Below, one piece after another: positions 1,909 to 22,517 of a stretch of 24,000 nt of DNA. This stretch comes from Thermophilibacter immobilis (GTDB lineage Bacteria; Actinomycetota; Coriobacteriia; Coriobacteriales; Atopobiaceae). The position numbers and the translations under genes are program-made. The stretch is taken from NCBI RefSeq assembly GCF_015277515.1, contig NZ_CP063767.1:1988770-2012769 (forward strand), given 5' to 3'. The first letter of the stretch is position 1; every line of letters begins with the position of its first letter. The notes below the pieces were generated by a model. That model did no database searches, was not told the origin of the DNA, and saw only the letters and a program-made list of their open reading frames with translations.

Positions 1909-3237
1909 CTAGGCGCCGAAACGCCCCACGCCCTCCCGCGAGACACGCGCGAAGAAGTGCGGAACGGGTTCCGGCTGCTCATCGCGGATGTCATACACGC
2001 CCCGAAGGATGCGCTCCGCCTCGTCGAGACGCTCCTCGCTGTTGGCGTAGAGCGTGGCCATGAGGTCTCCGGGAGCAATCCGCGCGCCGGTCTTGGCCGC
2101 GAGCACGATGCCGGCCGCCGGATCGATGGCATCCTCCTTGGTGGCACGACCCGCCCCGAGCGCGACCGACGCGATGCCGCAGCGCCCCGTGTCCATAGCA
2201 AAGACCCAGCCTCCGTCAACGGAGCGGACCTCGCGAGAGCACGCGGGCTGTGCAAAGAGCGCGTAATCATCGAGGACCCGCGCGTCCCCGCCCTGAGCCG
2301 CGACCATCTCGTGCAGCTTCTGGAATCCCTGACCGTTGGAGATCTGCGTACGCGCCGTTTTGCGGCACTTCTCCAGGCTGCCCACGCCCGCGAGAAAGAG
2401 CATGTTGGCCGCAAGCTCCACGCAGGTCTCGGTGAGATCCTCGGAAGCCGTGCCCTTGAGCACATCGCAGGCCTCCATGACCTCGAGGGAGTTGCCGATG
2501 GCACGGCCCAGGGGACGTCCCATGTCGGTGATAAGGGCGACCGTGGTGCGGCCAACTTCCTCTCCCAGGTCGACCATGCACTGAGCAAGGGCTACGGCGT
2601 CCTCGGAGGTCTTCATGAAGGCGCCGCTTCCGCACTTGACGTCGAGCAGAATCGCATCGGCACCGGACGCGATCTTCTTGCTCATAATGCTCGAGGCGAT
2701 GAGGGGAAGCGAGTCGACGGTGGCGGTGACGTCACGTAGGGCATAGAGCTTCTTGTCCGCGGGGACGAGGTTGCCCGTCTGTCCGATGACGGCACAGCCG
2801 ACCTCGTTCACGATTCTGAAGAACCGCTCCATGTCCACGTCTACGGAAAGCCCAGGGATGGACTCGAGCTTGTCTAGGGTTCCCCCGGTGTGTCCCAGGC
2901 CGCGTCCGCTCATCTTAGCCACGGGCACGCCCAGAGACGCCACGAGCGGGGCTATGACCAGCGTAGTCTTGTCGCCCACACCGCCGGTCGAGTGCTTGTC
3001 GACCTTCACGCCTCGGATGGCGGAGAGGTCGACCATGTCGCCGGAACGGGCCATGTCCATGGTGAGACGCGCGGTCTCGCCGGCGTTCATGCCCTCGTAG
3101 AAGATGGCCATGAGCAGGGCGGACGCCTGATAGTCGGGGATGCTTCCCGCCACGTAGCCGTTGACGAAGAAGTCGATCTGGTCGTCCGTGAGCACGCCGC
3201 CGTTGCGCTTCTGCTCGATGATGTCGTACATTCTCAT
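1909..3237 (-). CDS. pdp: Pyrimidine-nucleoside (thymidine) phosphorylase
   Basis: 442 aa. N-terminus MRMYDIIEQKRNGG, plus KHSTGGVGDKTTL and SGRGLGHTGGTLDKLE motifs characteristic of Pdp/DeoA. It lies 24 nt downstream of cdd on the same strand. Confidence 0.92.
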   Translation of the reverse strand: MRMYDIIEQKRNGGVLTDDQIDFFVNGYVAGSIPDYQASALLMAIFYEGMNAGETARLTMDMARSGDMVDLSAIRGVKVDKHSTGGVGDKTTLVIAPLVASLGVPVAKMSGRGLGHTGGTLDKLESIPGLSVDVDMERFFRIVNEVGCAVIGQTGNLVPADKKLYALRDVTATVDSLPLIASSIMSKKIASGADAILLDVKCGSGAFMKTSEDAVALAQCMVDLGEEVGRTTVALITDMGRPLGRAIGNSLEVMEACDVLKGTASEDLTETCVELAANMLFLAGVGSLEKCRKTARTQISNGQGFQKLHEMVAAQGGDARVLDDYALFAQPACSREVRSVDGGWVFAMDTGRCGIASVALGAGRATKEDAIDPAAGIVLAAKTGARIAPGDLMATLYANSEERLDEAERILRGVYDIRDEQPEPVPHFFARVSREGVGRFGA

Positions 3238-3261
3238 GCCGAATCGTTTCCTTTCGTAGCG

Positions 3262-3714
3262 CTACGCCGATGTCCCGGGCGCGGGCCGTCCTAGATCCTC
3301 CGGTCCGAACCCCAGGGGCAAAAGCTCCTTCAGCGCGAGCGCGCGCGTCTCGAACGTGCCTGCCCGTGTGCCGGAGCGTCCGAGAATAACACGGAACGTA
3401 TCCTGGTCACAGAACTCGCGCATCACCTGGCGGCACACGCCGCAGGGCGCGCACCACTCACGCGGGGGCTCGCCCTCGGGCCCGCCCACGATGGCGATGG
3501 CCGCAAAGGAGCGCGTCCCCTCGCTGACGGCCTTGAAGAAGGCCGTGCGCTCGGCGCAGTTGCTGGGCGTGTAGGAGGCGTTCTCGATGTTGCACCCCTG
3601 GGTCACGCTGCCGTCGGACGCGAGCAGCGCCGCCCCCACGGCAAAGCGGGAGTACGGGACGTACGCCCGCTCGCGCGCCCCGACGGCCAGTCCGACGAGC
3701 TCCTCGTCCTCCAT
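3262..3714 (-). CDS. cdd: Cytidine deaminase
   Basis: 150 aa with zinc-ligand motifs CAERTA and PCGVCRQ, typical of the small Cdd family. It is packed tightly between the permease gene and pdp. Confidence 0.9.
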   Translation of the reverse strand: MEDEELVGLAVGARERAYVPYSRFAVGAALLASDGSVTQGCNIENASYTPSNCAERTAFFKAVSEGTRSFAAIAIVGGPEGEPPREWCAPCGVCRQVMREFCDQDTFRVILGRSGTRAGTFETRALALKELLPLGFGPEDLGRPAPGTSA

Positions 3715-3724
3715 GGTGCCCTCC

Positions 3725-4642
3725 TTATCGGCTGCCCTTCACGTACGGCACGCCATCGGCCTTGGGAGCCACGGAGCTGCCCACGAACAGGACGAGCGTG
3801 AGAATCGTGATGACGTAGGGCAGCATCGAGAGGATCTGGGACGGAATGGCCGCACCGCCGCCCAGCATGATGACGAGCGCCTGCGTGAAGCCGAACAGCA
3901 TGCACGCGCCATAGGTGCCAAACGGCTTCCACTTGCCGAAGATGACCGCAGCAAGCGCGATGAAGCCCTGGCCGGCGATGGCCGTCTGCGTGAACTGGGA
4001 GATGATGGCCAGCGTGACCGAGGCGCCCCCAAAGCCGGCGAGCATGCCGGAGGTGAGGACGCACAGCCAACGGGTGCGGGAGACGTTGATGCCGAGCGTG
4101 TCGGCAGCGGCGGGATGCTCGCCCACGGCACGCACGCGCAGCCCCCACTTGGTCTTGTAAAGCACGAACCAGACGGCGATGGTGGCAATAAGAGCGAGCA
4201 GCACCGTGACGTCCACGTTGAGGCTCGCAATCGGAGTGTCCGAAAGACCTCCGGCCCCAAAGACCTTGGGAAGCGTGGCGACGATGGAGGACATGGCCGC
4301 CCCGTCGAACATGCTGCGGCAAGCGAACAGGGCAATGCCCGGGGCGAGCAGGTTGATGGCCACGCCCGAGACCGTCTGGTCGGCCGTAAAGGTGACCGAC
4401 GCCAAGGCGTGGAGCGCCGCGATGAGCATTCCGCAGACGCCCGCGAACAAAAAGCCGAGCCACGGGTTGCCCGTGAGGTGGCTGCCCGCCACGCCGGCGA
4501 AGGCACCCACGGCCATCATGCCCTCGATGGCGATGTTGGTCACGCCGGAGCGCTCCGAGACCACGCCGCCCAGGGCCCCGAACACGTAGGGCGTGGAATA
4601 CGTAAGTGTGATGGCAACGAGCATGATCAGACTATTCAGCAT
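3725..4642 (-). CDS. ABC transporter permease (nucleoside/BMP-type uptake system, second permease)
   Basis: 305 aa, multi-pass hydrophobic protein. The N-terminus TYSTPYVFGALGGVVSERSGVTNIAIEGMM is typical of BMP-associated (RbsC-like) permeases. Its start overlaps the upstream permease gene by 11 nt. Confidence 0.85.
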   Translation of the reverse strand: MLNSLIMLVAITLTYSTPYVFGALGGVVSERSGVTNIAIEGMMAVGAFAGVAGSHLTGNPWLGFLFAGVCGMLIAALHALASVTFTADQTVSGVAINLLAPGIALFACRSMFDGAAMSSIVATLPKVFGAGGLSDTPIASLNVDVTVLLALIATIAVWFVLYKTKWGLRVRAVGEHPAAADTLGINVSRTRWLCVLTSGMLAGFGGASVTLAIISQFTQTAIAGQGFIALAAVIFGKWKPFGTYGACMLFGFTQALVIMLGGGAAIPSQILSMLPYVITILTLVLFVGSSVAPKADGVPYVKGSR

Positions 4643-5960
4643 CGCCGGCCTCCTTGCTGTTCGCGTCTGCGTCCGTGCCGCCGGGCGCGCCCACGTCGGG
4701 GTCAGCCGGCACAGGGCCCGGCTCCACCGGGGATGCCTCCTGCTCTATGGGATAGGCGGAGGTCTCGTTCTTCTCGGCGCCCATCTCGATGACGCCACCG
4801 GACGCATCCGTCGGACTCGCCCCTACGAGGGCGCCCTCGGCCGCGAGTGCGCGCCTGCGCTCGATGCGCTCGGCGAGCTTGGGCACGATGCCGCCCAGGG
4901 CCATGAAGAATACGATGGTGCCAATCATGATGTTGATAATCTCTGACGGCGCCCCCATGACCTGCTGCACCGTCTGGCCACCGTAGATGAGACCGGCAAA
5001 CAGCAGGGACGCGGGGATGCAGCCCAGAGGCGAGCAGCCGGCGATAAAGGCAACGGACAGGCCGTTGAAGCCGTAGTTCTCAAAAGCGGCGATCGTGGAG
5101 ATGGAGTGCGGGGAGATGCCCGTGATGGTGAGGGCGCCGGCAAGGCCGCACAGGCCTCCGGATATGAGCATGCACAACACGATGTTCTTCTGCACGTTGA
5201 TGCCAGCGAACTGGGCGGCGTCGCGGGCCAGGCCCACCGCGCGGATCTCGTAGCCCACCTTGGTCTTGGTGAGCAGCCAGGCGATGAAAATCGCGGCCAG
5301 AAGGGCGATGGCAAAGCCCACGTTGGCGTCGGTCTTGACGAGCGCCTCCTGGAGCCAGGGAATGCCGGAGAGCGCCTTCTGGCCCGCCTCGGACACCTTC
5401 CAGTTGGGAAGGATCATCGTGAAGCTCGACTCGTTGACCGGGATGGCCCCCGTGGAGTTGGCACGGTGGAAGGTGTCAGTCTGCACGACGAAGTTGCAGA
5501 GGTAGAGCATGATCCAGTTGAGCATGATGCTCGTGATGACCTCGTGGATGCCAAACTTCCCCTTGAGCCAGCCGACAAAGGCGCCCAGGAGCGCGCCTCC
5601 CGCCGTGCCCGCAAGGATCACGAGCGGAATCTGGAGGGGCGCCGGGAGATTGACCTGCGAGCCCACGACGACGGCGAGCACGGTGCCGCAGATGTACTGC
5701 CCCTCTCCGCCGATGTTGAAGAGCCCCGCCTTGTAGGCAAAGGCGACCCCACAGCCCGTGAGCAGGAGCGGCGTGGCCTTGATGATAACGTTGGCAATGT
5801 ACTTGGGCCTGCCGAGAGCCCCGTTGAACAGCGCGGCAAACGAGCCCGCGGGGTCATAGCCCGCGCTGGCGAGCACGATCGCCGCCACACCAAAACCAAA
5901 GAGAATGGCGACGATCGCCGAGACGATGGGCTTCTTCAGGATCTTGGTGAAGGTGCTCAT
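4632..5960 (-). CDS. ABC transporter permease (first permease) with an ~80-aa acidic, Pro-rich C-terminal tail
   Basis: 442 aa. The hydrophobic core contains GLFNIGGEGQ, the permease signature of this family. ATGA start/stop overlap with the ATPase gene at 5957-5960. Confidence 0.85.
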   Translation of the reverse strand: MSTFTKILKKPIVSAIVAILFGFGVAAIVLASAGYDPAGSFAALFNGALGRPKYIANVIIKATPLLLTGCGVAFAYKAGLFNIGGEGQYICGTVLAVVVGSQVNLPAPLQIPLVILAGTAGGALLGAFVGWLKGKFGIHEVITSIMLNWIMLYLCNFVVQTDTFHRANSTGAIPVNESSFTMILPNWKVSEAGQKALSGIPWLQEALVKTDANVGFAIALLAAIFIAWLLTKTKVGYEIRAVGLARDAAQFAGINVQKNIVLCMLISGGLCGLAGALTITGISPHSISTIAAFENYGFNGLSVAFIAGCSPLGCIPASLLFAGLIYGGQTVQQVMGAPSEIINIMIGTIVFFMALGGIVPKLAERIERRRALAAEGALVGASPTDASGGVIEMGAEKNETSAYPIEQEASPVEPGPVPADPDVGAPGGTDADANSKEAGDAE

Positions 5961-7486
5961 TTGCTCTCACCCCCTGCCATGAGAAGGCCAATCTGTCGCT
6001 CGTTGACCGTTCCCTGGTCGAAGGAGCCGACGATGGCACCGTCGTAGATGACGTCGATTCTGTCGGACACGCTCATGACCTCGTCAAGCTCGAGCGAGAT
6101 GAGCAGGATGGCGGCGCCTCGGTCGCGCTCGCGCACGAGCGCCTTGTGCACGAACTCGATAGCGCCCACGTCGAGGCCGCGCGTGGGCTGAACCGCAACA
6201 AGAAGATCGGGCTCGCGTGAGACCTCGCGCGCAATGATGACCTTCTGCTGATTGCCCCCGGAGAGGCCTCCCGCGGCGTGGTCCTCGCAGTCATCGGGGC
6301 GAATGTCAAACTCCCTGATGAGCTCGCGCGTATACGCGCGCATGCGGTCGTAGTCGAGCCGGATGCCCGAGCCAAACTCGTCCTGGTCGTGAATCTCGAG
6401 CACGACGTTCTCGGCCACGGTAAACGGCAAGACCAGGCCCCAGCGGTGACGGTCGGAGGGGATGGTGGCCACGGAGTGGTCGAGCACGTTTTTGATGCTC
6501 GTATTCTGCACCTCGACGCCCCGTACGCTGATGGTCCCCGACTCCACCTTGACAAGGCCGTCTATGGCGTCGGTGAGCTCCGCCTGCCCGTTTCCGTCGA
6601 TGCCCGCCACGCCCACGATCTCGCCGGCATGCACGTCAAGGGAGAGGCCCTTGACCTGCCCGATGCCACGCGCGTCCTTCACGTGGAGGTCGCGGATGGA
6701 CAGAACCACGTCACCGGGACGCGTAGAGCCCTTCTCCACGTTGAAGCTCACGCGACGTCCCACCATCCGAGAGGCGAGCTCCTCCTGGCTAGTCGTGGCA
6801 ACGTCCACGGTGCCCATGTAGACGCCCCGGCGGATGATGGTGCACTCGTCCGCGGAGGCCATGATCTCCTTGAGCTTGTGGGTGATGATGATGATCGTCT
6901 TGCCCTTGTCCACCAGGCCGTGCATGATCTTGATGAGCTTGTCGATCTCCTGAGGGGTGAGCACGGCCGTGGGCTCGTCCAAGACCAGCGTCTGGGCCCC
7001 GCGATAGAGGACCTTGAGGATCTCCACGCGCTGCTGCATGCCCACCGAGATGTCCTCGACCTTGGCGTCCAGGTCAACGTCGAAGCCGTACTCGTCGGCG
7101 ATCTGGGCGACGCGCTCGCGCGCTCGCCGGGGGTCCAGGATGCCGGGGGCGCCGCAGACCTCGTCGCCGAGCACGATGTTCTCGGTGACCGTGAAGTTTT
7201 CCACGAGCATGAAGTGCTGGTGAACCATGCCGATGCCCTGCGCGATGGCACCCGTGGGGTCCTTGATGCCGACCTGCTCGCCGTTGAGAAAGACCTCTCC
7301 CTCGTCGGCCTGGTACAGGCCATAGAGCACGTTCATGAGCGTGCTCTTGCCCGCCCCGTTCTCTCCCAAGATGGCATGGATGGACTGCCTCCTGACGTCC
7401 AGGTTCACGCCGTCGAGCGCCTTGAACGTGCCGAAGGTCTTGGTGATGCCGTGCATCTGCACCGCGTATGCCGGACTGACCTCCAC
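5957..7486 (-). CDS. ABC transporter ATP-binding protein, tandem-NBD (RbsA-like/nucleoside type)
   Basis: 509 aa. Walker A GENGAGKST, Walker B LVLDEPT, a second signature LSGGNQQK and a degenerate second P-loop GIDGNGQ. GTG start at 7484-7486, preceded by AAAGGAGG 6 nt upstream. Confidence 0.9.
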   Translation of the reverse strand: MEVSPAYAVQMHGITKTFGTFKALDGVNLDVRRQSIHAILGENGAGKSTLMNVLYGLYQADEGEVFLNGEQVGIKDPTGAIAQGIGMVHQHFMLVENFTVTENIVLGDEVCGAPGILDPRRARERVAQIADEYGFDVDLDAKVEDISVGMQQRVEILKVLYRGAQTLVLDEPTAVLTPQEIDKLIKIMHGLVDKGKTIIIITHKLKEIMASADECTIIRRGVYMGTVDVATTSQEELASRMVGRRVSFNVEKGSTRPGDVVLSIRDLHVKDARGIGQVKGLSLDVHAGEIVGVAGIDGNGQAELTDAIDGLVKVESGTISVRGVEVQNTSIKNVLDHSVATIPSDRHRWGLVLPFTVAENVVLEIHDQDEFGSGIRLDYDRMRAYTRELIREFDIRPDDCEDHAAGGLSGGNQQKVIIAREVSREPDLLVAVQPTRGLDVGAIEFVHKALVRERDRGAAILLISLELDEVMSVSDRIDVIYDGAIVGSFDQGTVNERQIGLLMAGGESK

Positions 7487-7516
7487 GTGTCGCCTCCTTT
7501 AGCTCGTCCTCCCATA

Positions 7517-7552
7517 GCGCGGGGGACACCTCATCGAGGCATCCCCCGGCGC
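7517..7552 (-). promoter_or_regulatory. Intercistronic stem-loop between the binding-protein gene and the ATPase gene
   Basis: GGGGGA (7521-7526) pairs with TCCCCC (7542-7547), and flanking GC pairs extend the stem with one bulge. 15-nt loop. It sits 20 nt after the lipoprotein stop and just before the ATPase RBS. Confidence 0.4.
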
Positions 7553-7571
7553 AATGGGCCTGCGTGCAGCC

Positions 7572-8660
7572 CTAGGCAGAGAAGGAGCTGAGCTCGCTCT
7601 CGTTTGCGGGAGGCTTGATGTCTCCGCTCTTGATCTTTTCGCCGATCTCGACGGCCTCGTTGTAGATCTCGTCGCCGATGATGTCATGCCCCTCGGGGAT
7701 CCCCACGCAGTCCTCGGTCATGCCCAGGCTGATCGTGGTGCCGCCCTCGAGGTCGCCGGACTCGATCCGGGTGGACACGTCCACGACGGCCACGTCGACG
7801 CGCTTGAGCGCCGAGGTGATGACGTTGTCCTCGGCGAGGTAGGACTGGTCCATGTCCACGCCGATCGCGTACTGGTTGGCCTCCTTGGCCGCCTCGATGA
7901 CGCCCGTGCCCACGCCACCGGCGGCGTGGAAGACGATGTCGCAGCCGTCCGAGAACATCTTCTGCGTGATGGACTTGCCCTTGGCGGAGTCGCTGAAGGA
8001 CTCGGCGTACTGGGCCTGGACCTCGACGCTCGTGCCCTTGGTGGAGTTGGCGTAGGCGACGCCGCCCTTGTAGCCAAACTCGAACTGGTCGATGACGTCC
8101 GAGGAGACGCCGCCCACAAAGCCGACCTTGCCCGTCTTGGTGAAGCACGCCGCGATGTAGCCGACCATGAACGAGGGCTCCTGGGCGCGGAACTGGACGC
8201 CGGTGAGGTTGGAGACGTCAGAGGCGTTCGCGTTGTCGACGATGGCGAACTTGACGTCGGGATTCTGCTGGGCGGACTTCTCGACGGCGTCGGCCATGGC
8301 AAAGCCCACGCCCCAGATCAGGTTAGAGCCGTCATCGACGGCCTTGTCCAGGTTGGTGGCGTAGTCGGCCTCCTGCTTGGACTCGAGGTAGCTCACCTCC
8401 CAGCCCTTCTCCTCGTTGAGCTGCTGAAGGCCGGCCCAAGAGAGCTGGTTGAAGGACTGGTCGTTGACGCCGCCGGTGTCGGTGATCATCTCGAGCTTGT
8501 AGCTGGCCTCGGAATCCGTGCTGGAGGAGCCGGAATCGGAGGAGGAGTCGGAGGTACTCGAGCCACCACCGCACCCCGCCAGGCCGAGACCCGCAAAGAC
8601 CGCCACGGCACCCATCCCCCCGATGAAGCCACGACGCGAAACGCTGTGATTCTCCCTCAT
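7572..8660 (-). CDS. BMP-family (PnrA/Med-like) nucleoside-binding lipoprotein, ABC substrate-binding component
   Basis: I start at the ATG at 8660 (MRENHSVSRRGFIGG...), preceded by AGAAGGAG. Twin-arginine-like SRRGFI is followed by the lipobox LAGC and a Ser-rich linker. The mature part (TDTGGVNDQSFNQ, GVGF, FVGG) is typical of the Bmp family. Confidence 0.88.
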   Translation of the reverse strand: MRENHSVSRRGFIGGMGAVAVFAGLGLAGCGGGSSTSDSSSDSGSSSTDSEASYKLEMITDTGGVNDQSFNQLSWAGLQQLNEEKGWEVSYLESKQEADYATNLDKAVDDGSNLIWGVGFAMADAVEKSAQQNPDVKFAIVDNANASDVSNLTGVQFRAQEPSFMVGYIAACFTKTGKVGFVGGVSSDVIDQFEFGYKGGVAYANSTKGTSVEVQAQYAESFSDSAKGKSITQKMFSDGCDIVFHAAGGVGTGVIEAAKEANQYAIGVDMDQSYLAEDNVITSALKRVDVAVVDVSTRIESGDLEGGTTISLGMTEDCVGIPEGHDIIGDEIYNEAVEIGEKIKSGDIKPPANESELSSFSA

Positions 8661-8683
8661 TGCAACGCTCCTTCTCTGTTGTA

Positions 8684-8754
8684 TCTCGGCTGGACGCCGA
8701 GACCCCTTTGAGACGGCCTTGTCCGTCTCCTTTTGAACGGGCCCGAAGACCCGT
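8684..8754 (-). promoter_or_regulatory. Three tandem stem-loops in the deoD-lipoprotein spacer
   Basis: Perfect stems are TCTCGGC/GCCGAGA (8684-8702), GAGACGG/CCGTCTC (8710-8729) and ACGGG/CCCGT (8737-8754). None is followed by a U-tract in the minus-strand (sense) RNA. Confidence 0.45.
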
Positions 8755-8787
8755 GAAGTGCCCGCTTTTTGTGCACTCCCCCTGGCA

Positions 8788-9513
8788 TTAGCGCACATCC
8801 GAGGTGGCAACTCCCAGCGCAACTTCCATCATCTGGGTGAATGACGTCTGGCGCTCCTCGGCCGGCAAAGATGCGCCCGTGAGGGGAAGGTCGGAGACGG
8901 TGAGCAGGGTCACAGCGCGCTTCTTGGCGCGCAGGGCGTTGAGGTACAGGGCGACCGACTCCATCTCCACCGCCAGCACCCCCATGCGTGCCCAGCGCTC
9001 GTTGACCGTCTCGTCGTCGTTGTAGAAGACGTCGGAGGACAGGACGTTGCCAACCTTGTAGTCAAAGCCAAGCTGCTCGGCCACCTCGACGGCGCGGCGC
9101 AGAAGGCCAAAGTCGGCGAGAGGGGCGAGCGTGCCGGGCATGTGGAACTGCGCGGCGTAGTTGGAGTCCGTGCAGGCGCCCATGCCCATGACCAGGTCGC
9201 GCAGCTGCACGTCGGGGGCTAGGCCGCCCGCGGTGCCAATGCGGATGATCGCATCCACGTCGTAGAAGTTGAAGAGCTCGTAGGAGTAGATGCCGATGGA
9301 CGGCATGCCCATGCCCGATCCCATGACCGAGACGCGCGCGCCCTGATAGGTTCCCGTGTAGCCGAGCATGCCGCGCACGGAGTTGAACTGATCGACGTCC
9401 TCAAGGTAGGTCTGGGCCACGAACTGGGCGCGCAGCGGGTCTCCGGGCATGAGGACCATCTTTGCGATCTGCCCCTTGGCGGCGGCGTTGTGCGGGGTGG
9501 GGGTGAGCGCCAT
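8788..9513 (-). CDS. deoD: Purine nucleoside phosphorylase, DeoD type
   Basis: 241 aa. Matching stretches include PGDPLRA, GMGMPSIGIYSYEL, RIGTAGG and VEMES, as in hexameric DeoD-type PNP. Its start is 3 nt from the deoB stop. Confidence 0.92.
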   Translation of the reverse strand: MALTPTPHNAAAKGQIAKMVLMPGDPLRAQFVAQTYLEDVDQFNSVRGMLGYTGTYQGARVSVMGSGMGMPSIGIYSYELFNFYDVDAIIRIGTAGGLAPDVQLRDLVMGMGACTDSNYAAQFHMPGTLAPLADFGLLRRAVEVAEQLGFDYKVGNVLSSDVFYNDDETVNERWARMGVLAVEMESVALYLNALRAKKRAVTLLTVSDLPLTGASLPAEERQTSFTQMMEVALGVATSDVR

Positions 9514-9516
9514 GTC

Positions 9517-10725
9517 CTAGCCCTCCAGGATCTGGTCGAGATGAGACGTTCCGATGGGGAGCATGGGAGCCCCCAGATAGTCGAGGACGGTCGCGGCGAC
9601 GTCGGCGAACGTGGGGAGCGTCCCCAGGTTCGCGCCCGGCTTGACGCGCGGGCCCGCGATGAGCCAGGGGACGTACTCGCGCGAATGGTCGGTCGAGGGA
9701 GTGACGGGGTCGCAGCCGTGATCGGCGCTGATCATGAGCAGATCGTCCTCGCCGAGACCCGTCAGGAGCTCGGGCAACTTGGCGTCAAAGTACGAGATTG
9801 CCTTGGCATAGCCCACCGCGTCGTTGCGATGGCCGTAGATCATGTCGGTGTCCACGAGGTTCGTGAAGCACAGGCCGTTGAAGGCGCGCCCCGTACGCTC
9901 GATGGTCTTGTCGATCCCCTCGGGGTTGCCCGAGGTGTAGACGAAGTCGGTCATGCCGCGATGGGCGAAGATATCGTAGATCTTGCCCACCGAGAGCACG
10001 TCGTAGCCGCTCTTGGAGAGGACGTCGAGCATCGTGGGTCCCGTGGGCTCCAGGGAGAAGTCGTGGCGACGCGGAGTGCGCGTGAAGGAGCCGTCCTCGC
10101 CCACAAACGGACGAGCTATGACGCGAGCGACGCCGTGCTCCCCGGTGAGAATCGCGCGGGCGATACGGCAGTACGCGTAGAGCTGCTCGACGGGAACGAC
10201 GTCCTCGTGAGCGGCGATCTGGAAGACGCTATCCGCCGAGGTGTAGACGATCAGCTTGCCGGTGTCCCGATGCTCCTGGCCAAAGTCCTTGATGACCTCG
10301 GTGCCGGAGTAGGGCCGGTTGCAGAGCACGCCGCGCCCCGTCTGGCGCTCGAACTCCTTGATGACCTCGGGAGGGAAACCCTCAGGGTAGGTCGGGAAGC
10401 GGCGCGGCGTGACGACGCCCGCCATCTCCCAGTGGCCGACGGTGGTGTCCTTGCCGGCCGAGGCCTCCCGCAGGCGCGCGAAGGCTCCCGTGGGATGCGC
10501 GATGGGCGCGAGGTCAACGTCACGGGGGCCCTCGAGCGCGCCCTCGATGTTAAGGAGGCCCAGCTTGGTGAGGTTGGGAATGTGAAGCTCTCCCGAGGTC
10601 TCGCATGCGGTAAGCGTGTTGCTCAGCTCGTCGTCGAAGTCGGGCCAGTCGGGCTCCGATCCTATGCCAAAGCTGTCAAGAACGACAAGAAACACGCGCC
10701 GATCGGCATGGGAAGCCTCACTCAT
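9517..10725 (-). CDS. deoB: Phosphopentomutase
   Basis: I start at the ATG at 10725 (MSEASHADRRVFLVVLDSFGIG...), preceded by GGAG. Metal-site motifs VVLDSFGIG and SADHGCDP are present. The 31 upstream codons of the track ORF were rejected. Confidence 0.9.
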   Translation of the reverse strand: MSEASHADRRVFLVVLDSFGIGSEPDWPDFDDELSNTLTACETSGELHIPNLTKLGLLNIEGALEGPRDVDLAPIAHPTGAFARLREASAGKDTTVGHWEMAGVVTPRRFPTYPEGFPPEVIKEFERQTGRGVLCNRPYSGTEVIKDFGQEHRDTGKLIVYTSADSVFQIAAHEDVVPVEQLYAYCRIARAILTGEHGVARVIARPFVGEDGSFTRTPRRHDFSLEPTGPTMLDVLSKSGYDVLSVGKIYDIFAHRGMTDFVYTSGNPEGIDKTIERTGRAFNGLCFTNLVDTDMIYGHRNDAVGYAKAISYFDAKLPELLTGLGEDDLLMISADHGCDPVTPSTDHSREYVPWLIAGPRVKPGANLGTLPTFADVAATVLDYLGAPMLPIGTSHLDQILEG

Positions 10726-10894
10726 GTGTACTCCAATCCCCGATGGGTCTGCACCCGCTCCCTGGCATGATGCACGAACTGTCGCTTGCCGTGACGTGCA
10801 TAAATATCTGCTTACCATCTTGTTACTTTGATTAGCCGACGTCAGTCTACTTCATCGCTTCTCTCGCACGAACCGCCCCTGCGCCTCAGTGTTA

Positions 10895-11066: not shown

Positions 11067-11095
11067 TTTACACAACGTCAGGGCCTCCGTATAAT
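11067..11095 (+). promoter_or_regulatory. Sigma-70-like promoter of the pseudouridine unit (TTTACA-N17-TATAAT)
   Basis: TTTACA at 11067-11072, an exact 17-nt spacer and TATAAT at 11090-11095. This sits ~55 nt upstream of the psuK-like ATG, in an otherwise GC-rich region. Confidence 0.55.
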
Positions 11096-12257: not shown

Positions 12258-12309
12258 GGGCATGCGCCCGATCAAACCACGTAGCCAACCCTACATGAAA
12301 GGAACTGCC

Positions 12310-13239
12310 ATGAAGGAGCTCAACCAGTACCTGGACGTTGCCCCCGAGGTCAAGAAGGCGCTCGAGGAGGGCCGGCCTGTCGTCGCCCTGGAGTCCACCA
12401 TCATCTCGCACGGCATGCCCTACCCCCAAAACGTCGAGACGGCCCTCGAGGTCGAGCGCCTCGTGCGCGAGAGCGGCGCCGTGCCGGCGACCATCGCCGT
12501 CATCGGCGGGCGCCTGCGCGCCGGCCTGTCCAAGGAGGAGATCGACCATCTGGGCAAGAAGGGCCACGGCGTGGCCAAGGTCTCCCGCCGCGACCTCGCA
12601 GTGGTCTGCGCCCGGGGCATGGACGGCGCCACGACCGTCACCACCACGATGATCATCGCCCACATGGCCGGCATCGAGGTCTTTGCCACCGGCGGCGTGG
12701 GCGGCGTCCACCGCGGCGCCGAGACCACCATGGACGTCTCGGCCGACCTCGAGGAGCTGGCGCAGACCCCCGTCATGGTCATCTGCGCGGGCGCCAAGTC
12801 CATTCTCGACCTGGGCCTCACGCTCGAGTACCTGGAGACCAGGGGCGTGCCCGTCCTGGGCTACCAGACCCAGGAGCTGCCCGCCTTCTACACCCGCCAC
12901 TCCGGCTTCGCCGTGGACTACGAGGTCGACAGCCCCGAGGAGCTCGCGCGGGTCTTCCACACCAAGCGTGAGATGGGCCTGTCCGGCGGCGTCCTGGTGG
13001 GCAACCCAATCCCCGAGGAGTACTCGATGGACAAGGCCGTCATCGACCAGGCCATCGACCAGGCGCTCGCCGAGGCTGACGAACAGGGAATCCACGGCAA
13101 GGAGTGCACGCCGTTTCTTCTCGCCAAGGTCGCAGAGCTCACCGGCGGGGACTCGCTCGACTCCAACATCCGCCTCGTGTTCAACAACGTGGTCCTGGGG
13201 GCCAAGACCGCCGTTGCCCTGCGCGCCCTCGAGGGGTAG
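12310..13239 (+). CDS. psuG: Pseudouridine-5'-phosphate glycosidase
   Basis: I start at the ATG at 12310 (MKELNQYL...), preceded by AAAGGAA. Motifs VALESTIISHGMPYPQN and TGGVGGVHRG are typical of PsuG/YeiN (IndA-like). Confidence 0.92.
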   Translation: MKELNQYLDVAPEVKKALEEGRPVVALESTIISHGMPYPQNVETALEVERLVRESGAVPATIAVIGGRLRAGLSKEEIDHLGKKGHGVAKVSRRDLAVVCARGMDGATTVTTTMIIAHMAGIEVFATGGVGGVHRGAETTMDVSADLEELAQTPVMVICAGAKSILDLGLTLEYLETRGVPVLGYQTQELPAFYTRHSGFAVDYEVDSPEELARVFHTKREMGLSGGVLVGNPIPEEYSMDKAVIDQAIDQALAEADEQGIHGKECTPFLLAKVAELTGGDSLDSNIRLVFNNVVLGAKTAVALRALEG

Positions 13240-13268: not shown

Positions 13269-13313
13269 GCGCCCGCAGCCACGCCGCTCGCCGACATGGC
13301 TGCGGGCGCTTTT
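13269..13313 (+). terminator. Rho-independent terminator after psuG
   Basis: 12-bp perfect GC-rich stem GCGCCCGCAGCC (13269-13280) / GGCTGCGGGCGC (13298-13309), a 17-nt loop, then TTTT (13310-13313). Confidence 0.6.
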
Positions 13314-13327
13314 CCATAAAGGGACAT

Positions 13328-14149
13328 ATGTCCTCGAATGTAAACCAGCAGCTCCGTAGAATGGCCCAAAAGGGGTTCGATGACGCCGGAGAGAGGGCCG
13401 TGGACGTTCTCGGATACATCAGCGCGCTGAACGCGCCCACGCGCGAGGCGCTCATGCCGTGGGCGCGTCGCATCCCGGCTGGCCTCCTGGCGCGCTGCCG
13501 CCTCATCCACGTGGAGCGCGGCGAGGAGCTCGTGAGCATGTTCGATCGCTGCGAGCACGTCTACGTCCTGTGCGTGGGTCGCATTCGAACCACGACCCGG
13601 AGCGTCTCGGGCTCGAGCTTCACCATCGACGAGTTCGAGGCCCCCACGGTCTTCGGGGAGATGGAGCTCCTGGCCCAGAGCCCGATCACCCTGGGATCGC
13701 TCGTGGCACTGAGCGGCTGCTCGTTCATCGCGGCGCCGCAGGCGGACTACCTCGCCTGGCTCACGTCCGACCCCGAGGCCCTTCTCGCCCGCTCGCGCTG
13801 GGTCGTGAGGAGCCTCCTGCGTCAGATGGGCAACGCGCGCAGCCTCATGGGCTGGAGCGCAACGAGGCGCCTCATGTTCGTCTTGTTCCAGTCCTGTCAC
13901 CAGGGCACGGGGCGCAGCGAAAACGGAGGCGCCACCATCCAGGCCACGCGCGCGGAGCTCGCCGAGCGGGCCGGCGTGAGTACCAAGACCGTCTCGCGCG
14001 CGCTGGGCGAGCTCGAGGGCCGCCAGATGCTCAGGCGCTCAGGCAGAAAGATCGTCATTGACCGGGACGCCTACGAGCGCCTGGAAAACGAGATACGACA
14101 CGAGCTGGAGTCGGAGCCGCCCCAGGGCGGCAAGAGGGAGGAACAATGA
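13328..14149 (+). CDS. Crp/Fnr-family transcriptional regulator (cNMP-binding-like domain plus C-terminal HTH)
   Basis: I start at the ATG at 13328 (MSSNVNQQ...), preceded by AAAGGGA. The beta-roll motif FGEMELL and the HTH TRAELAERAGVSTKTVSRALGELEGRQMLRR are present. No FNR-type N-terminal Cys cluster. The stop overlaps the next start (ATGA at 14146-14149). The upstream part of the track ORF (12683-13327) overlaps psuG and was rejected. Confidence 0.72.
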   Translation: MSSNVNQQLRRMAQKGFDDAGERAVDVLGYISALNAPTREALMPWARRIPAGLLARCRLIHVERGEELVSMFDRCEHVYVLCVGRIRTTTRSVSGSSFTIDEFEAPTVFGEMELLAQSPITLGSLVALSGCSFIAAPQADYLAWLTSDPEALLARSRWVVRSLLRQMGNARSLMGWSATRRLMFVLFQSCHQGTGRSENGGATIQATRAELAERAGVSTKTVSRALGELEGRQMLRRSGRKIVIDRDAYERLENEIRHELESEPPQGGKREEQ

Positions 14150-15648
14150 GCGACAACGGGTACCTGAACATCATCACCGCGAGCAACCTCACCTACAAGC
14201 AGAAGGTGCTGCACCTGGCGCAGGCCGCCGAGAACTCCGTGCGCCCCCTCAAGACCACCAAGGAGTTCGACCGCTTCTTCGAGGCCCGCGCGCTCGACGA
14301 CATGCAGGAGGGCAACGCCCCCTATCGCCCGCGCTACATCTGCCCCGACTACCAGCACTTTTCCGGCCACGGCTCCGAGTTCCTTCACCTGGATGCCCCC
14401 AGGGACCTCGACGACCTGCTCTGGGGCCTCTCGATGGTCTATAACAACGTGCCCTCCGTCACGAGCCGTCCCGTCTCGGTGGGGCAGCTCGACAAGATCA
14501 TCGACCCGTTCCTTGACGGCGTCTCCGACGACGAGGCCAAGCGCGCGCTCAAGCACTTCCTGAACTACATCGACCGCACCGTAGCCTCTGGCTACTGCCA
14601 TGCCAACATAGGCCCCGAGGACACCCGAGCCGGTCGCCTGCTCCTTGAGGTCGAGGCCGAGCTCCAAAACGCCGTGCCAAACTTCACCCTGAAGTACGAC
14701 CCCGCGGTGACGCCCGACGACTTCATGCGCCTCGCGCTTACGACCGCCATGAAGTGCGCCAACCCGGCGTTTGCCAACCACGCCATTCACAAGCACACCT
14801 ATCAGGGCGGCTACCAGGTTGTGAGCTGCTACAACGTGCTGCCCCTGGGCGGCGGTGCCTACTGCCTGGACCGCCTCCTGCTGCCGGGCATGGCGCGCCT
14901 GGCCACGAGCGTCGACGACTTCCTGGACAACATCCTGCCCTCGGCCACCGGCGAGCTGTGCAACTACATGAACGAGCGCATCCGCTTCGAGGTTGAGGAG
15001 TCTAACTTTTTCCAGAGCTCCTGGCTCGTCAAGGACGGCCTCATCAGCCGCGAGCGCTTCACCGGGATGTTCGGCGTGGCTGGTATGAGCGAGTGCGTGA
15101 AGGAGCTCCTGCACCTGGGAGACGAGCGCGCCTACGGCACGGACCCCGAGGCCGACGAGCTGGCCGAGAAGATCATGCAGAAGATCTACGACCAGGTCAA
15201 CGAGTTCGACGCCGTGTACTCCGAGGTGGCGGGCGGCCGCTTCACCCTGCACGCGCAGGCCGGCTTCTCCGACCAGGTGGGCGTCACGCCGGGCGTGCGC
15301 GTCAAGGTGGGCGACGAGCCCGAGGTCCTCTACGACCACATTCGCCAGGCCGCGAGCCTGCACCGCTTCTTCAACGCCGGCGTGTCCGACATCTTCCCCG
15401 TCGAACCCACGGCCGAGAAGAACCCGGATGCCCTTCTCGACGTCATCAAAGCCGCCTTCTCCATCGACGACAAGTACCTGTCGTTCTACTCGTCCGACGG
15501 CGACCTCGTGCGCATCACGGGCTTCCTCGTAAAGCGCTCCGAGATGGAGAAGTACGCCAAGGGCGAGGCGGTTCTCGCTGATACCTCCCACGACGGCGAG
15601 GGCAACTGGCGCGCCAACGACCTTGCCGACCGCAAGGTCAGGCTCTAG
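14146..15648 (+). CDS. yjjI: YjjI-family (DUF3029) short glycyl-radical enzyme, substrate unknown
   Basis: 500 aa with RBS AGGGAGGAA. C-terminal glycyl-radical fingerprint DLVRITGFLV (Gly459 codon 15520-15522). Mid-protein VSCYNVLPLGGG (Cys228 codon 14827-14829). Blocks GNAPYRPRYICPDY, HANIGPED and FTLKYDP match my recollection of E. coli YjjI. A dedicated activase gene follows. Confidence 0.82.
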   Translation: MSDNGYLNIITASNLTYKQKVLHLAQAAENSVRPLKTTKEFDRFFEARALDDMQEGNAPYRPRYICPDYQHFSGHGSEFLHLDAPRDLDDLLWGLSMVYNNVPSVTSRPVSVGQLDKIIDPFLDGVSDDEAKRALKHFLNYIDRTVASGYCHANIGPEDTRAGRLLLEVEAELQNAVPNFTLKYDPAVTPDDFMRLALTTAMKCANPAFANHAIHKHTYQGGYQVVSCYNVLPLGGGAYCLDRLLLPGMARLATSVDDFLDNILPSATGELCNYMNERIRFEVEESNFFQSSWLVKDGLISRERFTGMFGVAGMSECVKELLHLGDERAYGTDPEADELAEKIMQKIYDQVNEFDAVYSEVAGGRFTLHAQAGFSDQVGVTPGVRVKVGDEPEVLYDHIRQAASLHRFFNAGVSDIFPVEPTAEKNPDALLDVIKAAFSIDDKYLSFYSSDGDLVRITGFLVKRSEMEKYAKGEAVLADTSHDGEGNWRANDLADRKVRL

Positions 15649-15663
15649 GTCGGAGCCCTAGTC

Positions 15664-16503
15664 ATGTCCGCACACGTCCCCATCAACAACATCATCCCGT
15701 TCTCCTTGGTGGACGGGCCGGGGGCTCGCTGCTCGGTGTTTTTGCAGGGCTGCAACATTCGCTGCGCCTACTGTCACAACCCCGAGACCCAGTCCCTGTG
15801 CGTGGCCTGCGGCGCCTGCGTGAGGGCCTGTCCGGCACGGGCTCTCACGCTCGAGGCGGGCGCAGTCGTGTGGGACTCCGAGCTTTGCACGGGTTGCGAT
15901 ACGTGCATTGGCACCTGCACGTATCGCTCCTCGCCGCGCATCCGCCACATGGACGCGCGTGAGGTCTTTGCCGAGGTATCCAGCTATCAGCCCTTCATCC
16001 GTGGCGTCACGACCTCGGGCGGCGAGTGCATGCTCTACCCGGAGTTTTTGCTTGAGCTCTTTGGCCTATGCCGCGCGGCGGGGATCGGCGCCCTCATCGA
16101 CTCCAACGGGACAATCGACTTCTCTGAGCACGAGGGGCTCCTAAACGTGGCCGACGGCGTGATGATTGACGTCAAGGCGTGGAGCGACGCGTGGTTCGTG
16201 CACCTCACGGGCACCGACGGCGCGACGGTGAGAAAGAACCTCGCCTTTCTGGCGGAGCGCGACAAGCTCGAAGAGGTGCGCGTCATCGTGACCGAGGGAT
16301 GGAACGACCCCGAGGATGCCGTGGACGGCATCGCGGCCACGCTGGGCAGGCGCGTGGGGGCCGCGCGTCTGCGCCTCATGCGCTTCCGCCACTTTGGGGT
16401 GCGCGGGCCCATGGCGAGCGCGCCCTCCCCCTCCGACGCACGGATGGACGCGCTGGAGGCACGAGCGCACGAGCTTGGCTTTGGCGAGGTCGTGGTCAGC
16501 TAG
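15664..16503 (+). CDS. yjjW: YjjW-type glycyl-radical enzyme activase (radical SAM)
   Basis: 279 aa. N-terminal SLVDGPGARCSVFLQGCNIRCAYCHNP carries the CX3CX2C triad (15751-15774). Two ferredoxin-like clusters, CVACGACVRACP and CTGCDTCIGTC, are present. TTSGGEC is typical of GRE activases. Confidence 0.88.
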   Translation: MSAHVPINNIIPFSLVDGPGARCSVFLQGCNIRCAYCHNPETQSLCVACGACVRACPARALTLEAGAVVWDSELCTGCDTCIGTCTYRSSPRIRHMDAREVFAEVSSYQPFIRGVTTSGGECMLYPEFLLELFGLCRAAGIGALIDSNGTIDFSEHEGLLNVADGVMIDVKAWSDAWFVHLTGTDGATVRKNLAFLAERDKLEEVRVIVTEGWNDPEDAVDGIAATLGRRVGAARLRLMRFRHFGVRGPMASAPSPSDARMDALEARAHELGFGEVVVS

Positions 16504-16556: not shown

Positions 16557-16622
16557 TCTTTGAACGCTATCGGCAGTTCGGAGGCTTGTTTCTCGTCCGC
16601 ACCTGCCGATAGCGTTCAAAGA
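16557..16622. repeat. 20-bp perfect inverted repeat with a 26-nt spacer
   Basis: TCTTTGAACGCTATCGGCAG (16557-16576) is the exact reverse complement of CTGCCGATAGCGTTCAAAGA (16603-16622). It lies 54 nt after the yjjW stop, between convergent genes, with no flanking U-tract on either strand. Confidence 0.75.
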
Positions 16623-16693: not shown

Positions 16694-17498
16694 CTATGGC
16701 GCCAGCACGTCAAGCGGTACGACCTGAATTCCTTCGTCTGTTACGTAAGCGGGAGCCCCATAGGCAACTACGACACATTTTGCGACGGGCGGTTTCTCTC
16801 CCTGCAAGCGTCGACTCGTTGCGAGCAAGCGAGGCAAGTAGGGCATTCACCTTATCGGGGCTACGACGCACACCATCTAACCTCGATATATCTGAATCGG
16901 CGACCGTCTGCACGTATTCTGCCGCTATTCGCATCGCCGCTTTCGTCGAAAGGCCGACAGACCGGGGCCACCCACCACGACATACAGCTTCCGCCACAGA
17001 CGGAAGACCAGACATCGATCCTTGTGCCCTGGTGAACGTGTCTCCGGAGAGTAACCGCGAAAGAGGAATTTCTCCCGTGGATCTTCCCGACTCAAAGAGG
17101 GTCATGGTATCCATTCTCAGCACGGAGAAACGCCCTACGCCACTATGCATAGGCTGAGCGGCGTCATGGGGGGTCGACGAGCCCGTGAGGATAAACTGCC
17201 CCGGATCTCCCCTACGGTCGCACTCAAAGCGAGCCGCATCCCATAACTTTGGCACCTCTTGCCACTCGTCTATGAGACGCGGCGTCGGCCCCTCCATCGC
17301 TGTCGCGGGGTCCGCAGTCGCCATGAGCCGTCCTGCGAAGTCACCGGCTGGATCAGTCATCGAGATTTCAGACTTTGCGTATCTGCGCCCGATCGTGATC
17401 TTGCCGCACCACTTTGGCCCGCGAAGCACGAGAGTACCGAATAGAGAAAGGTCTTCCTCAAGCCCGGAGTCCACGACGCGGGGGATGTACTCTCTCAT
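16694..17498 (-). pseudogene. Decayed AAA-ATPase gene (AAA_14/DUF4143 family) with an internal deletion/frameshift
   Basis: The N-terminal 230 aa match this family (IPRVVDSGLEE..., P-loop GPKWCGKIT with T->I in the usual GKTT). The frame then degenerates into an Arg-rich tail. In another frame the last ~35 codons read EKPPVAKCVVVAYGAPAYVTDEGIQVVPLDVLAP* (stop at 16694-16696), which resembles the family C-terminus. About 130-150 aa of the DUF4143 core are missing. Confidence 0.62.
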
Positions 17499-17809
17499 GA
17501 TGTGCCCTTCTCCCTCTTTAGCGGGATGGTTAAAATAGCGGCATCACCTGAACTAATGTGCAAATTTCCAGTGTTTTTGAGGGCACTTTTCCAGACCACC
17601 ACGATCACTTGAGCATTCTTTGAGCGGAGCGTAACCAGCATTTTATACAGAACGTCATCGAACTAGCCTCCTACGGGGAGCTACCCATTGGCAGCACGAT
17701 GCTCTTCGTGAGCGCTGGCTCAAGGCTGGGAAGAGATGTCCGGAGGACTCGCGCAGAGCCCTTATACAGGGATACTATCTAGACACACCATCTCGGAGGA
17801 GCGGCAGCC

Positions 17810-18280: not shown

Positions 18281-18316
18281 ACGAGCGAGGCAGAAAGGTG
18301 GCACGCGCCACGCGAC

Positions 18317-19060: not shown

Positions 19061-19142
19061 GAACGTCCCTTCGGCCTCCTCGGCGGCCACGTTAAGAGCA
19101 AAAAAAGAATCAGGGGCCACGAGGAGCCCCTGAGCGCGTGCA

Positions 19143-22483: not shown

Positions 22484-22517
22484 CGTTCCCCTCAGGCCTT
22501 CAGGCCTGAGGGGAACG
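22484..22517 (-). promoter_or_regulatory. 16-bp perfect hairpin inside the IS, between IRR and the transposase start
   Basis: CGTTCCCCTCAGGCCT (22484-22499) and AGGCCTGAGGGGAACG (22502-22517) are exact reverse complements. The hairpin lies ~50 nt upstream of the transposase ATG on the sense strand. Confidence 0.6.

Follow-up and report, generated by a model that had tools for sequence, protein, structure and literature searches.

The glycyl-radical enzyme YjjI and its activase YjjW are known from Escherichia coli (b4380 and b4379) as an orphan family, and NCBI labels the corresponding models TIGR04040 and TIGR04041 "hypothetical equivalogs". To our knowledge, with PflD and YbiW assigned in 2024, YjjI is now the one glycyl-radical enzyme of E. 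coli that still lacks a function. PflD and YbiW are redox-neutral C-O lyases/isomerases of cyclic sugar phosphates, the 1,5-anhydrohexitol-6-phosphates; they work with one catalytic cysteine and supply an aldolase (PMC13450708). For YjjI the sole functional guess, nitrogen metabolism, comes from a co-expression paper of 2011 (PMC3228777). In E. coli yjjI is directly activated by FNR (PMC3688515) and in Yersinia it is anaerobically induced 4.3-fold (PMC3792023); both observations support an anaerobic use of YjjI. The searchable literature, with papers in subscription journals outside its coverage, holds no functional assignment of YjjI or YjjW, in agreement with the first-pass annotation of the DNA investigated here, and a June 2026 review of the glycyl-radical-enzyme superfamily does not mention the YjjI family. 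Here we describe a yjjI-yjjW pair in a stretch of 24,000 nucleotides from Thermophilibacter immobilis (contig NZ_CP063767.1, positions 1,988,770 to 2,012,769), the whole of which is referred to as the window. Together with a crp-like gene the pair forms a three-gene operon within a nucleoside-breakdown locus (Table 1). We tentatively propose, with somewhat less than even confidence, that this operon is auto-activated and that YjjI carries out an oxygen-sensitive, redox-neutral radical reaction whose substrate is ribose-5-phosphate or a phosphorylated ribosyl compound close to it.

The window YjjI passes the curated cut-offs of TIGR04040 (605.2 against 498.3 bits, residues 7–499 on profile positions 4–497) and of PF11230 (685.6 against 23 bits), the "YjjI-like" family, formerly DUF3029. 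YjjW likewise passes TIGR04041 (353.9 against 250.2 bits), so the family assignment made in the first-pass annotation stands. Compared with E. coli YjjI the window enzyme is 38% identical over 495 aligned residues, that is over its full length, and both systems have in common the SCYN and VR[IV]TG[YF] motifs, an adjacent activase with a ferredoxin-type insert and a deo neighbourhood. The closest named relatives are found in Olsenella and Atopobiaceae (79% identity). The two systems differ in their regulation: in E. coli no gene for a Crp-family regulator adjoins yjjI, FNR exerts the control and CRP sites are present in the region common to yjjI and deoC, whereas the window regulator is translationally coupled to yjjI, its stop codon overlapping the yjjI start in an ATGA at 14146–14149 as previously annotated. 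Furthermore, positions 151 and 317 are both Cys in the window enzyme, whereas the E. coli enzyme carries Met at the former and Ala at the latter.

Near its C-terminus YjjI carries SSDGDLVRITGFLVKRSE, in which Gly459 (GGC, 15520–15522) is part of DLVRITGF, and Cys228 (TGC, 14827–14829) is part of a VSCYN motif. These two had been suggested as the radical residues. Their coordinates proved correct, and both residues (in VRITGF and SCYN) are invariant in 22 diverse YjjI members sharing 34–56% identity. In an AlphaFold2 model (predicted local distance difference test score, pLDDT, 87.8; predicted template-modelling score, pTM, 0.88) each of them occupies the tip of a beta-hairpin, corresponding to the usual Cys and Gly finger loops; a profile search of the PDB did not find a solved YjjI structure. 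Cys228 is the only invariant Cys of the 22 members, positions 151, 204 and 317 being variable. Cys204 and Cys151 were considered as a second redox cysteine; they are kept in close relatives, but both vary in the diverse alignment. The other invariant residues are E55, R63, Y64 (14335–14337), Y99, D116, D143, H152, N179, T189, S227, N230, R243, H369, Q371, R385 and R456. Three of the invariant arginines, R63, R243 and R385, lie outside the Gly loop and appear compatible with an anionic, phosphorylated substrate.

The activase gene starts 15 nt 3' of yjjI. As had been read in the first pass, its product of 279 amino acids contains a CX3CX2C motif (CNIRCAYC, residues 30–37, 15751–15774) and two auxiliary ferredoxin-type 4Fe-4S motifs (CVACGACVRAC and CTGCDTCIGTC). 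The next-best models are a PflC/PflE-type activase (149 bits) and NrdG (48–69 bits), all below cut-off. To judge from its motifs and model scores, YjjW is a PflC/dehydratase-type activase with two auxiliary clusters and not NrdG.

The YjjI family is small and slowly evolving. A profile search matched 590 of 1.84 billion representatives, of which about 20, clustered at 50% identity, are full-length, and the family is found in at least 582 species-level genomes, many of them of gut anaerobes. An archaeal contig with eIF-1A, NMD3 and RIO1 as neighbours (L092, 8001–10364) encodes a YjjI homologue of 532 amino acids and an activase of 247 amino acids without a ferredoxin-type Pfam match; the family thus reaches the Archaea, with a simpler activase. 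In an Oscillospiraceae locus two YjjI copies are arranged around one yjjW (L075, 10001–11497 and the open reading frame (ORF) next to yjjW).

An association of the cassette with nucleoside catabolism across phyla had been noted before. We analyzed the neighborhood of yjjI in the 80 genome loci closest to the window, each with up to 10 kb of flank, and in E. coli K-12; counts are given over 82 loci. ORFs were chosen by their summed homology score (choosing the longest ORF gave antisense ORFs in DNA of 65% G+C), clustered, and named using Pfam and NCBIfam. For dereplication we used greedy clustering at 75% YjjI identity, which resulted in 31 groups; single-linkage clustering at 65% identity collapsed all loci into 3 groups, YjjI being highly conserved, and was not used. 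YjjW is present in 75 loci (30 groups) and a Crp-like regulator is encoded directly upstream of yjjI in 46 (19 groups). Genes of a BMP-ABC transporter occur in 43–45 loci (20 groups), followed by DeoD in 41 (17 groups), DeoB in 29 (10 groups), DeoC and PsuK in 26 each (9 groups each), PsuG in 25, Cdd in 17 (10 groups) and an Fe-alcohol dehydrogenase in 16. After dereplication at least one nucleoside gene was found in 24 of the 31 groups. The pairing of YjjI-YjjW with nucleoside catabolism hence recurs across bacterial phyla, as the first-pass annotation had stated. Adenosine deaminase, Fe-alcohol dehydrogenase and transketolase are also found in some neighborhoods.

Several Clostridia contain yjjI-yjjW within the same tight operon as nucleoside genes, the gaps in such operons ranging from −4 to about 90 nt. 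Lacrimispora and Hungatella show the order YjjI-YjjW-BMP-ABC-permease-permease-Crp-DeoD-DeoD-Cdd with gaps of −11 to 86 nt and the conserved palindrome described below before yjjI. In one locus (L076) this palindrome is followed by DeoB-Crp-YjjI-YjjW-BMP-ABC-permease-permease-DeoD, and in two others (L059, L078) Cdd directly follows YjjW. In E. coli K-12 yjjW-yjjI lie next to deoCABD, as previously claimed, in divergent orientation; in Edwardsiella deoCABD is likewise divergent from yjjI-yjjW, which is followed by nupC, and in Proteus the deo neighbors are lost. This variation between lineages argues against the simple inheritance of one ancestral block. Among the most divergent YjjI members (35–43% identity) two adjoin genes for an inosine-uridine nucleoside hydrolase and an ADP-ribosylglycohydrolase-family protein, one of them with a PfkB kinase, PNP and a Bmp transporter nearby as well, and one further member adjoins a BMP-type permease. 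The remaining divergent loci are uninformative or different, including the archaeal contig and a locus with MFS and glycerophosphodiesterase genes (L090). ADP-ribosylglycohydrolase-family (PF03747) genes beside inosine-uridine nucleoside hydrolase genes and divergent yjjI-yjjW (L093, 195–3788; L099, 7449–8973) are a recurring partner.

The link to nucleosides could also be regulatory or historical, with YjjI acting on an unrelated small molecule derived from a nucleobase, from glycerol or a phosphodiester or from an amino acid, and having only anaerobic control or an inherited neighborhood in common with these genes. This would fit Bacteroidales, Proteus, the archaeal contig and several divergent members, which have no nucleoside genes nearby, as well as L090, where the MFS and glycerophosphodiesterase genes lie beside yjjI-yjjW. 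It would also fit E. coli, in which expression clusters with genes of nitrate and anaerobic respiration (PMC3228777; PMC6643234). However, the association recurs with differing gene orders and enzyme families in Actinomycetota, several classes of Bacillota, Spirochaetota and Enterobacterales, and single tight operons under the same palindrome include yjjI and nucleoside genes. In addition, any one family is expected by chance within 20 kb at a rate of about 1–3%, which we estimate from 1–3 copies per genome of 2–5 Mb and which cannot yield 17–20 of 31 groups. We therefore regard an unrelated substrate as very unlikely.

YjjI and the class III ribonucleotide reductase NrdD are genuinely homologous. 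When the YjjI model was searched with Foldseek, the best solved matches were all NrdD (P. copri, S. thermophilus and phage T4) with template-modelling (TM) scores of 0.72–0.75 (E = 9e-17 at TM 0.75), followed by the pyruvate formate-lyase (PFL)-like enzymes PflD and YbiW (8id0, 8id7 and 8yjo) and HypD. An hhalign comparison of the 22 diverse YjjI members with six NrdD sequences (E. coli NrdD and five phage genes) covered 394 columns with a probability of 97% (E = 1.2e-10); against E. coli NrdD alone the YjjI profile gave an uninformative 1.2%. PF13597 also matches YjjI slightly above its cut-off (26.9 against 26.2, residues 306–447). Both enzymes have a homologous ten-stranded barrel, and in the alignment Cys228 of YjjI lies opposite the thiyl Cys384 of E. 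coli NrdD on the finger loop, in either case without Glu at Cys+2. The Gly loop RITGYLV of P. copri NrdD matches RITGF/YLV of YjjI.

Beyond the barrel and the finger loops the two enzymes differ. The second catalytic cysteine of NrdD, Cys175, is placed opposite the invariant Tyr64, and Met382 falls into a gap. The Zn ribbon (C644, C647, C662 and C665, invariant in the NrdD alignment) is without a counterpart, the window YjjI having no Cys after residue 318. No Pfam match to the ATP cone was obtained in YjjI, and the YjjI-NrdD alignment begins at NrdD residue 144. YjjI is about 200 residues shorter than E. coli NrdD. The YjjI cassette is not NrdD proper: the second Cys/Met partner, the Zn ribbon and the ATP cone with the allosteric specificity apparatus or an NrdG-type activase were each not found. 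In a Neobacillus metagenome-assembled genome (L048, 15884–18252) a canonical nrdD-nrdG pair is located 4–6 kb downstream of yjjI-yjjW, which indicates that YjjI coexists with a true class III ribonucleotide reductase and is not its substitute.

Class III ribonucleotide reductase had been cited in the first pass as a precedent for radical chemistry on a ribose ring. This precedent should not be taken to imply a reductase, the reducing residues of NrdD being absent from YjjI. We nevertheless considered a catabolic, ribonucleotide-reductase-like enzyme that would strip ribose-5-phosphate, ribose-1-phosphate or a ribonucleoside of its 2-hydroxyl at the expense of formate or a different external reductant, giving a 2-deoxyribose phosphate which DeoC would split into glyceraldehyde-3-phosphate and acetaldehyde. 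Homology to NrdD is consistent with such a reaction, as is the residue at Cys+2, which is not Glu in the formate-dependent E. coli NrdD either (Cys384-Arg385-Ser386). DeoC is encoded within 10 kb in the 26 loci mentioned, and its gene directly adjoins the pair in E. coli, in Edwardsiella and in many Atopobiaceae, in the last of these with the Fe-alcohol dehydrogenase; the pathway may be written as redox-balanced with formate from pyruvate formate-lyase. Against this, Cys175 is opposite an invariant Tyr, Met382 has no counterpart and no second cysteine is conserved in the family. Among the 82 loci yjjI has no recurrent neighbor gene for a thioredoxin, a glutaredoxin or a formate-related function, and after dereplication DeoC is left in 9 of 31 groups only. 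Since the thiyl cysteine is kept, the reducing residues of NrdD are gone and no redoxin or formate gene travels along, a 2'-reduction of the ribonucleotide reductase type is improbable. Based on these residues YjjI is probably not a reductase, and a redox-neutral radical step on a ribose phosphate seems more likely.

Three routes, independent of each other in their biochemistry, are encoded beside yjjI: phosphorylase with phosphopentomutase, pseudouridine kinase with glycosidase, and nucleoside hydrolase with a ribokinase-type PfkB kinase. These routes converge on ribose-5-phosphate and the three invariant arginines suit a phosphate ester, which makes ribose-5-phosphate or a relative the likeliest substrate. 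A different possibility is a radical C-N/C-O lyase on an intact nucleoside or nucleotide, by which the base would be set free or the ribose ring opened; modified ribonucleosides of RNA turnover that are poorly handled by phosphorylases could serve as substrates. The nucleoside transporter is the most constant neighbor of yjjI (20 of 31 groups), in some operons yjjI-yjjW come first, directly before the transporter, and pseudouridine and ADP-ribosylglycohydrolase-family genes co-occur. Abstraction of the 3'-hydrogen followed by loss of a neighboring group is, moreover, generally known as the ancestral chemistry of NrdD. However, ordinary phosphorylases, hydrolases and deaminases that already cleave nucleosides are almost always encoded beside yjjI, nothing points to any particular modified nucleoside, and the three arginines speak for an anionic substrate, which a nucleotide would be as well. 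In our estimate a lyase of this kind is unlikely.

YbiW and PflD, as former orphan glycyl-radical enzymes of E. coli and structural neighbors of the YjjI model, offer a further comparison. Their activity on anhydrohexitol phosphates indicates that orphan E. coli glycyl-radical enzymes are capable of redox-neutral sugar-phosphate chemistry, and by analogy we hypothesize a functional resemblance to YjjI. The glycyl-radical 1,2-eliminases and isomerases have a Cys-x-Glu motif on their Cys loop (PMC13450708). This motif, present in GDH, CutC, HypD, YbiW and PflD, is absent from YjjI, the Cys loop of which is an invariant S-C-Y-N. YbiW and PflD are PFL-like proteins of 770–810 residues with Cys-x-Glu, whereas YjjI has 500 residues, is NrdD-like and carries Cys-Tyr-Asn.

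The regulator encoded upstream of yjjI had been described as the cassette's own. It is present, but it is not peculiar to this locus: it is a conserved partner in 19 of 31 groups and comes with a conserved palindrome. Like the Crp/FNR-family activators FNR, PrfA and YeiL it combines a cyclic-nucleotide-monophosphate-binding-like domain (PF00027, 41.2 bits, cut-off 27.5) with a Crp-type helix-turn-helix (HTH; PF13545, 40.5 bits, cut-off 27). Orthology to CRP, YeiL or FixK is not indicated, as the scores remain far below the cut-offs of these models (43.6 against 266, 29.3 against 180 and 25 against 300 bits); YeiL is the second-best NCBIfam match. The FNR-type N-terminal cysteine cluster is absent, and an alignment of 9 regulator orthologues contains no conserved Cys.

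The start of the regulator gene had been placed at ATG 13328, a position that we do not retain. This codon falls within a perfect 12-bp palindrome, GGACATATGTCC, which is part of GGGACATATGTCCT. When aligned with 8 orthologues the N-terminus begins at GTG 13400 and MDVLGY is conserved; one orthologous locus (L011) has an ATG at the homologous codon, after GGGAGAGAG. In the window GTG 13400 is preceded by the Shine-Dalgarno sequence GGAGAGAGGG at 13388–13397. Since ATG 13328 lies inside the conserved palindrome and the homologues start at the codon corresponding to GTG 13400, the latter is most likely the start of the gene, as judged from these sequences.

The palindrome was found without prior assumption by counting 5-N(2–8)-5 inverted repeats in the intergenic regions of related loci. 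Its consensus AGGACA-N2-TGTCCT is located upstream of the orthologous regulator gene, of yjjI or of the operon head in Coriobacteriia, in Lachnospiraceae and Oscillospiraceae (Clostridia), in Tissierellia and in Bacillaceae (Bacilli). Allowing at most one mismatch we found 25 matches in 1.32 Mb, 20 of them intergenic, compared to a mean of 2.55 (maximum 5) expected from 20 Markov simulations. In the window no further copy with up to two mismatches was found, including the deoB/psuK intergenic region. In most loci read (e.g. L011, L022, L038, L040, L045, L048, L055, L060 and L064) a −10-like hexamer follows 21–23 nt 3' of the palindrome. This spacing places the center of the palindrome at about −41.5 from the inferred start site, which is predicted near 13369 in the window, the geometry of class II activation by Crp/FNR proteins, and 13321–13362 therefore reads as the putative promoter and candidate operator of the regulator. 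In L040–L042 and L076 the operons that follow the palindrome encode the transporter and DeoD too, that of L076 additionally DeoB.

FNR recognizes TTGAT-N4-ATCAA and PrfA TTAACA-N2-TGTTAA, and E. coli YeiL is encoded in the psu/rih nucleoside cluster. Known Crp/FNR sites of class II promoters are likewise 14-bp palindromes with the same half-site spacing, and near −41.5 the candidate operator would have the same location, whereas its half-site AGGAC/GTCCT differs from those of FNR and PrfA. A second palindrome, CGACGTACCCGTCG, is present about 55 nt upstream of yjjI (e.g. L009, 9935–9948) in a regulator-yjjI spacer of about 150 nt in 16 Atopobium-type loci among L006–L030. It is absent from the window, where regulator and yjjI overlap.

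Taken together, the cassette is probably self-contained, auto-activated and part of the nucleoside-utilisation gene set of an anaerobe. In the proposed mechanism the Crp-family protein would bind the palindrome at 13321–13334, centered about 41.5 bp before the presumed transcription start, as suggested by the conserved site and its spacing, and so bound would activate its own gene together with yjjI and yjjW. YjjW is predicted from the chemistry of its family to set a radical on Gly459 by means of S-adenosylmethionine and its Fe-S clusters. The radical would then move to Cys228, which would abstract hydrogen from its substrate; the most likely candidate is ribose-5-phosphate or another phosphorylated ribosyl species close to it. 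The substrate may then be dehydrated, cleaved at a C-O or C-N bond or isomerised, with Cys228 giving the hydrogen back, and the product would enter central fermentation. In a more specific form, YjjI would represent a distinct class, an NrdD-derived, single-cysteine, non-reducing enzyme with a new ribosyl-phosphate radical reaction and a dedicated Crp-family activator acting through AGGACA-N2-TGTCCT; we regard this form as rather doubtful.

Several points weigh against a redox-neutral step on ribose-5-phosphate. The pairings of Tyr64 with Cys175 and of Cys228 with Cys384 have local posteriors of about 0.5 in an otherwise confident alignment. The 80 loci, being those closest to the window, are biased towards Coriobacteriia and Bacillota, and the background rate of nucleoside genes is an estimate and not a measurement. 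Seven of the 31 groups, in addition to several divergent or archaeal members, have no nucleoside genes within reach. With Cys-Tyr-Asn in place of Cys-x-Glu, the acid/base chemistry would have to differ from that of the eliminases. Ribose-5-phosphate already has its standard fate in the pentose phosphate pathway, and the advantage of a radical route is unexplained. Finally, gene context cannot name a substrate, and the function proposed is drawn from sequence, a structure model and analogy; the earlier statement that the substrate is not deducible from the sequence is upheld.

Known so far, as far as we can tell, was the orphan YjjI/YjjW family; new to the best of our judgement are how widely the nucleoside link extends and that it reaches the level of operons, the meeting of the neighboring routes at ribose-5-phosphate, the conserved Crp-family partner with its candidate operator and promoter geometry, and the single-cysteine, Tyr-for-Cys pattern, which argues against reduction. 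This turns a vague hint from the deo adjacency in E. coli into a testable programme with a short substrate list around ribose-5-phosphate and a redox-neutral prediction, and the candidate regulator with its defined predicted operator is a possible handle in the search for an inducer. If the proposal is true, radical enzymology would gain a new class of reaction and the anaerobic breakdown of nucleosides and pentoses by the gut microbiota a new branch. The scaffold of ribonucleotide reductase would have been reused for catabolism, and an anaerobic route would lead from nucleoside ribose to fermentation, bypassing the pentose phosphate pathway, under a dedicated Crp-family activator.

Table 1. 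Features of the window surrounding the yjjI-yjjW cassette.
Feature	Position	Strand	Basis
Crp/FNR-family regulator, 249 aa, revised start most likely GTG 13400	13400..14149	+	PF00027 and PF13545; N-terminal alignment of orthologues
YjjI-family glycyl-radical enzyme, 500 aa	14146..15648	+	TIGR04040, PF11230
YjjW-family radical-SAM activase, 279 aa	15664..16503	+	TIGR04041, PF04055 and Fer4 families
Candidate operator of the regulator, GGGACATATGTCCT, consensus AGGACA-N2-TGTCCT	13321..13334	.	conserved palindrome
−10-like hexamer TAGAAT, 22 nt after the palindrome	13357..13362	+	spacing common to other loci
G+C-rich hairpin followed by TTTT, 3' of psuG	13269..13315	+	inverted repeat 13269–13286/13292–13309
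Sigma-70-like promoter TTTACA-17-TATAAT, for psuK-psuG	11067..11095	+	11/12 consensus matches
HTH-PfkB kinase (PsuK/YeiI-like)	11151–12257	+	NF007416 270 bits, NF007355 225 bits, PF00294 and N-terminal HTH
PsuG, pseudouridine-5'-phosphate glycosidase	12262–13239	+	PF04227 455 bits
Nucleoside operon, divergent, deoB to pdp	1909..10818	-	family models
deoB	9517–10818	-	NF003766 503 bits
deoD	8788–9513	-	NF004489 333 bits
BMP/PnrA-like binding protein	7572–8822	-	PF02608 278 bits
ABC ATPase	5957–7486	-	part of the nucleoside operon
Two permeases	4632–5960, 3725–4642	-	part of the nucleoside operon
cdd	3262–3714	-	cytidine deaminase models above cut-off
pdp	1909–3237	-	NF004747 587 bits

The neighbors of the cassette are those given in the first-pass annotation: it follows psuK-psuG and lies opposite the deoB-deoD-nucleoside ABC-cdd-pdp operon. 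PsuK and PsuG jointly convert pseudouridine to uracil and ribose-5-phosphate. The hairpin 3' of psuG has a folding energy of −34.3 kcal/mol as RNA (z = −3.0), and none of 200 shuffled sequences folded equally well. A simple terminator scan did not call it, its T-run being short. It looks like a terminator that parts psuKG from the cassette, and with this strong hairpin and short T-run the cassette looks like a transcription unit of its own and not a continuation of psuKG. An Rfam scan of the locus returned one tRNA only and no riboswitch.

The psuK product has an N-terminal winged-helix domain and scores higher with NF007416/PRK09954 than with the pseudouridine kinase model NF007355, both below cut-off. 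The former is a sugar kinase model corresponding to YeiI of E. coli, an organism in which the genes for YeiI, PsuG, PsuK and YeiL, a Crp-family protein, likewise form a cluster.

A nucleoside island of about 16.5 kb has at its two ends genes of the same orientation, one for a Ham1/RdgB-type nucleoside triphosphate pyrophosphatase (1057–1725, minus strand) and one for RNase PH (18317–19204, minus strand). In many bacteria rph and rdgB are adjacent, and the entire island may have been inserted between them. At its 5' end the longest RNase PH ORF overlaps a tRNA gene (19146–19218, minus strand, Rfam 61.9 bits). As the RNase PH model match begins at residue 59, rph probably starts further downstream, past the tRNA.

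Between the convergent yjjW and an AAA_14 ORF we found a perfect 17-nt inverted repeat (16560–16576 and 16603–16619, TTGAACGCTATCGGCAG ... CTGCCGATAGCGTTCAA) with a loop of 26 nt, which is not followed by a T-run on either strand. The region 16710–18300 contains the short AAA_14-domain ORF (262 amino acids) and an ORF of 156 amino acids without a family match. Its G+C content is 0.567 compared to about 0.65 elsewhere, and it may be a remnant of foreign DNA. In addition, a mobile element is located near the locus: a Mutator-family (IS256-like) transposase gene (21135–22433, minus strand, PF00872 326 bits) lies beside a gene for a phosphotransferase system (PTS) EIIBC component (22492–23916).

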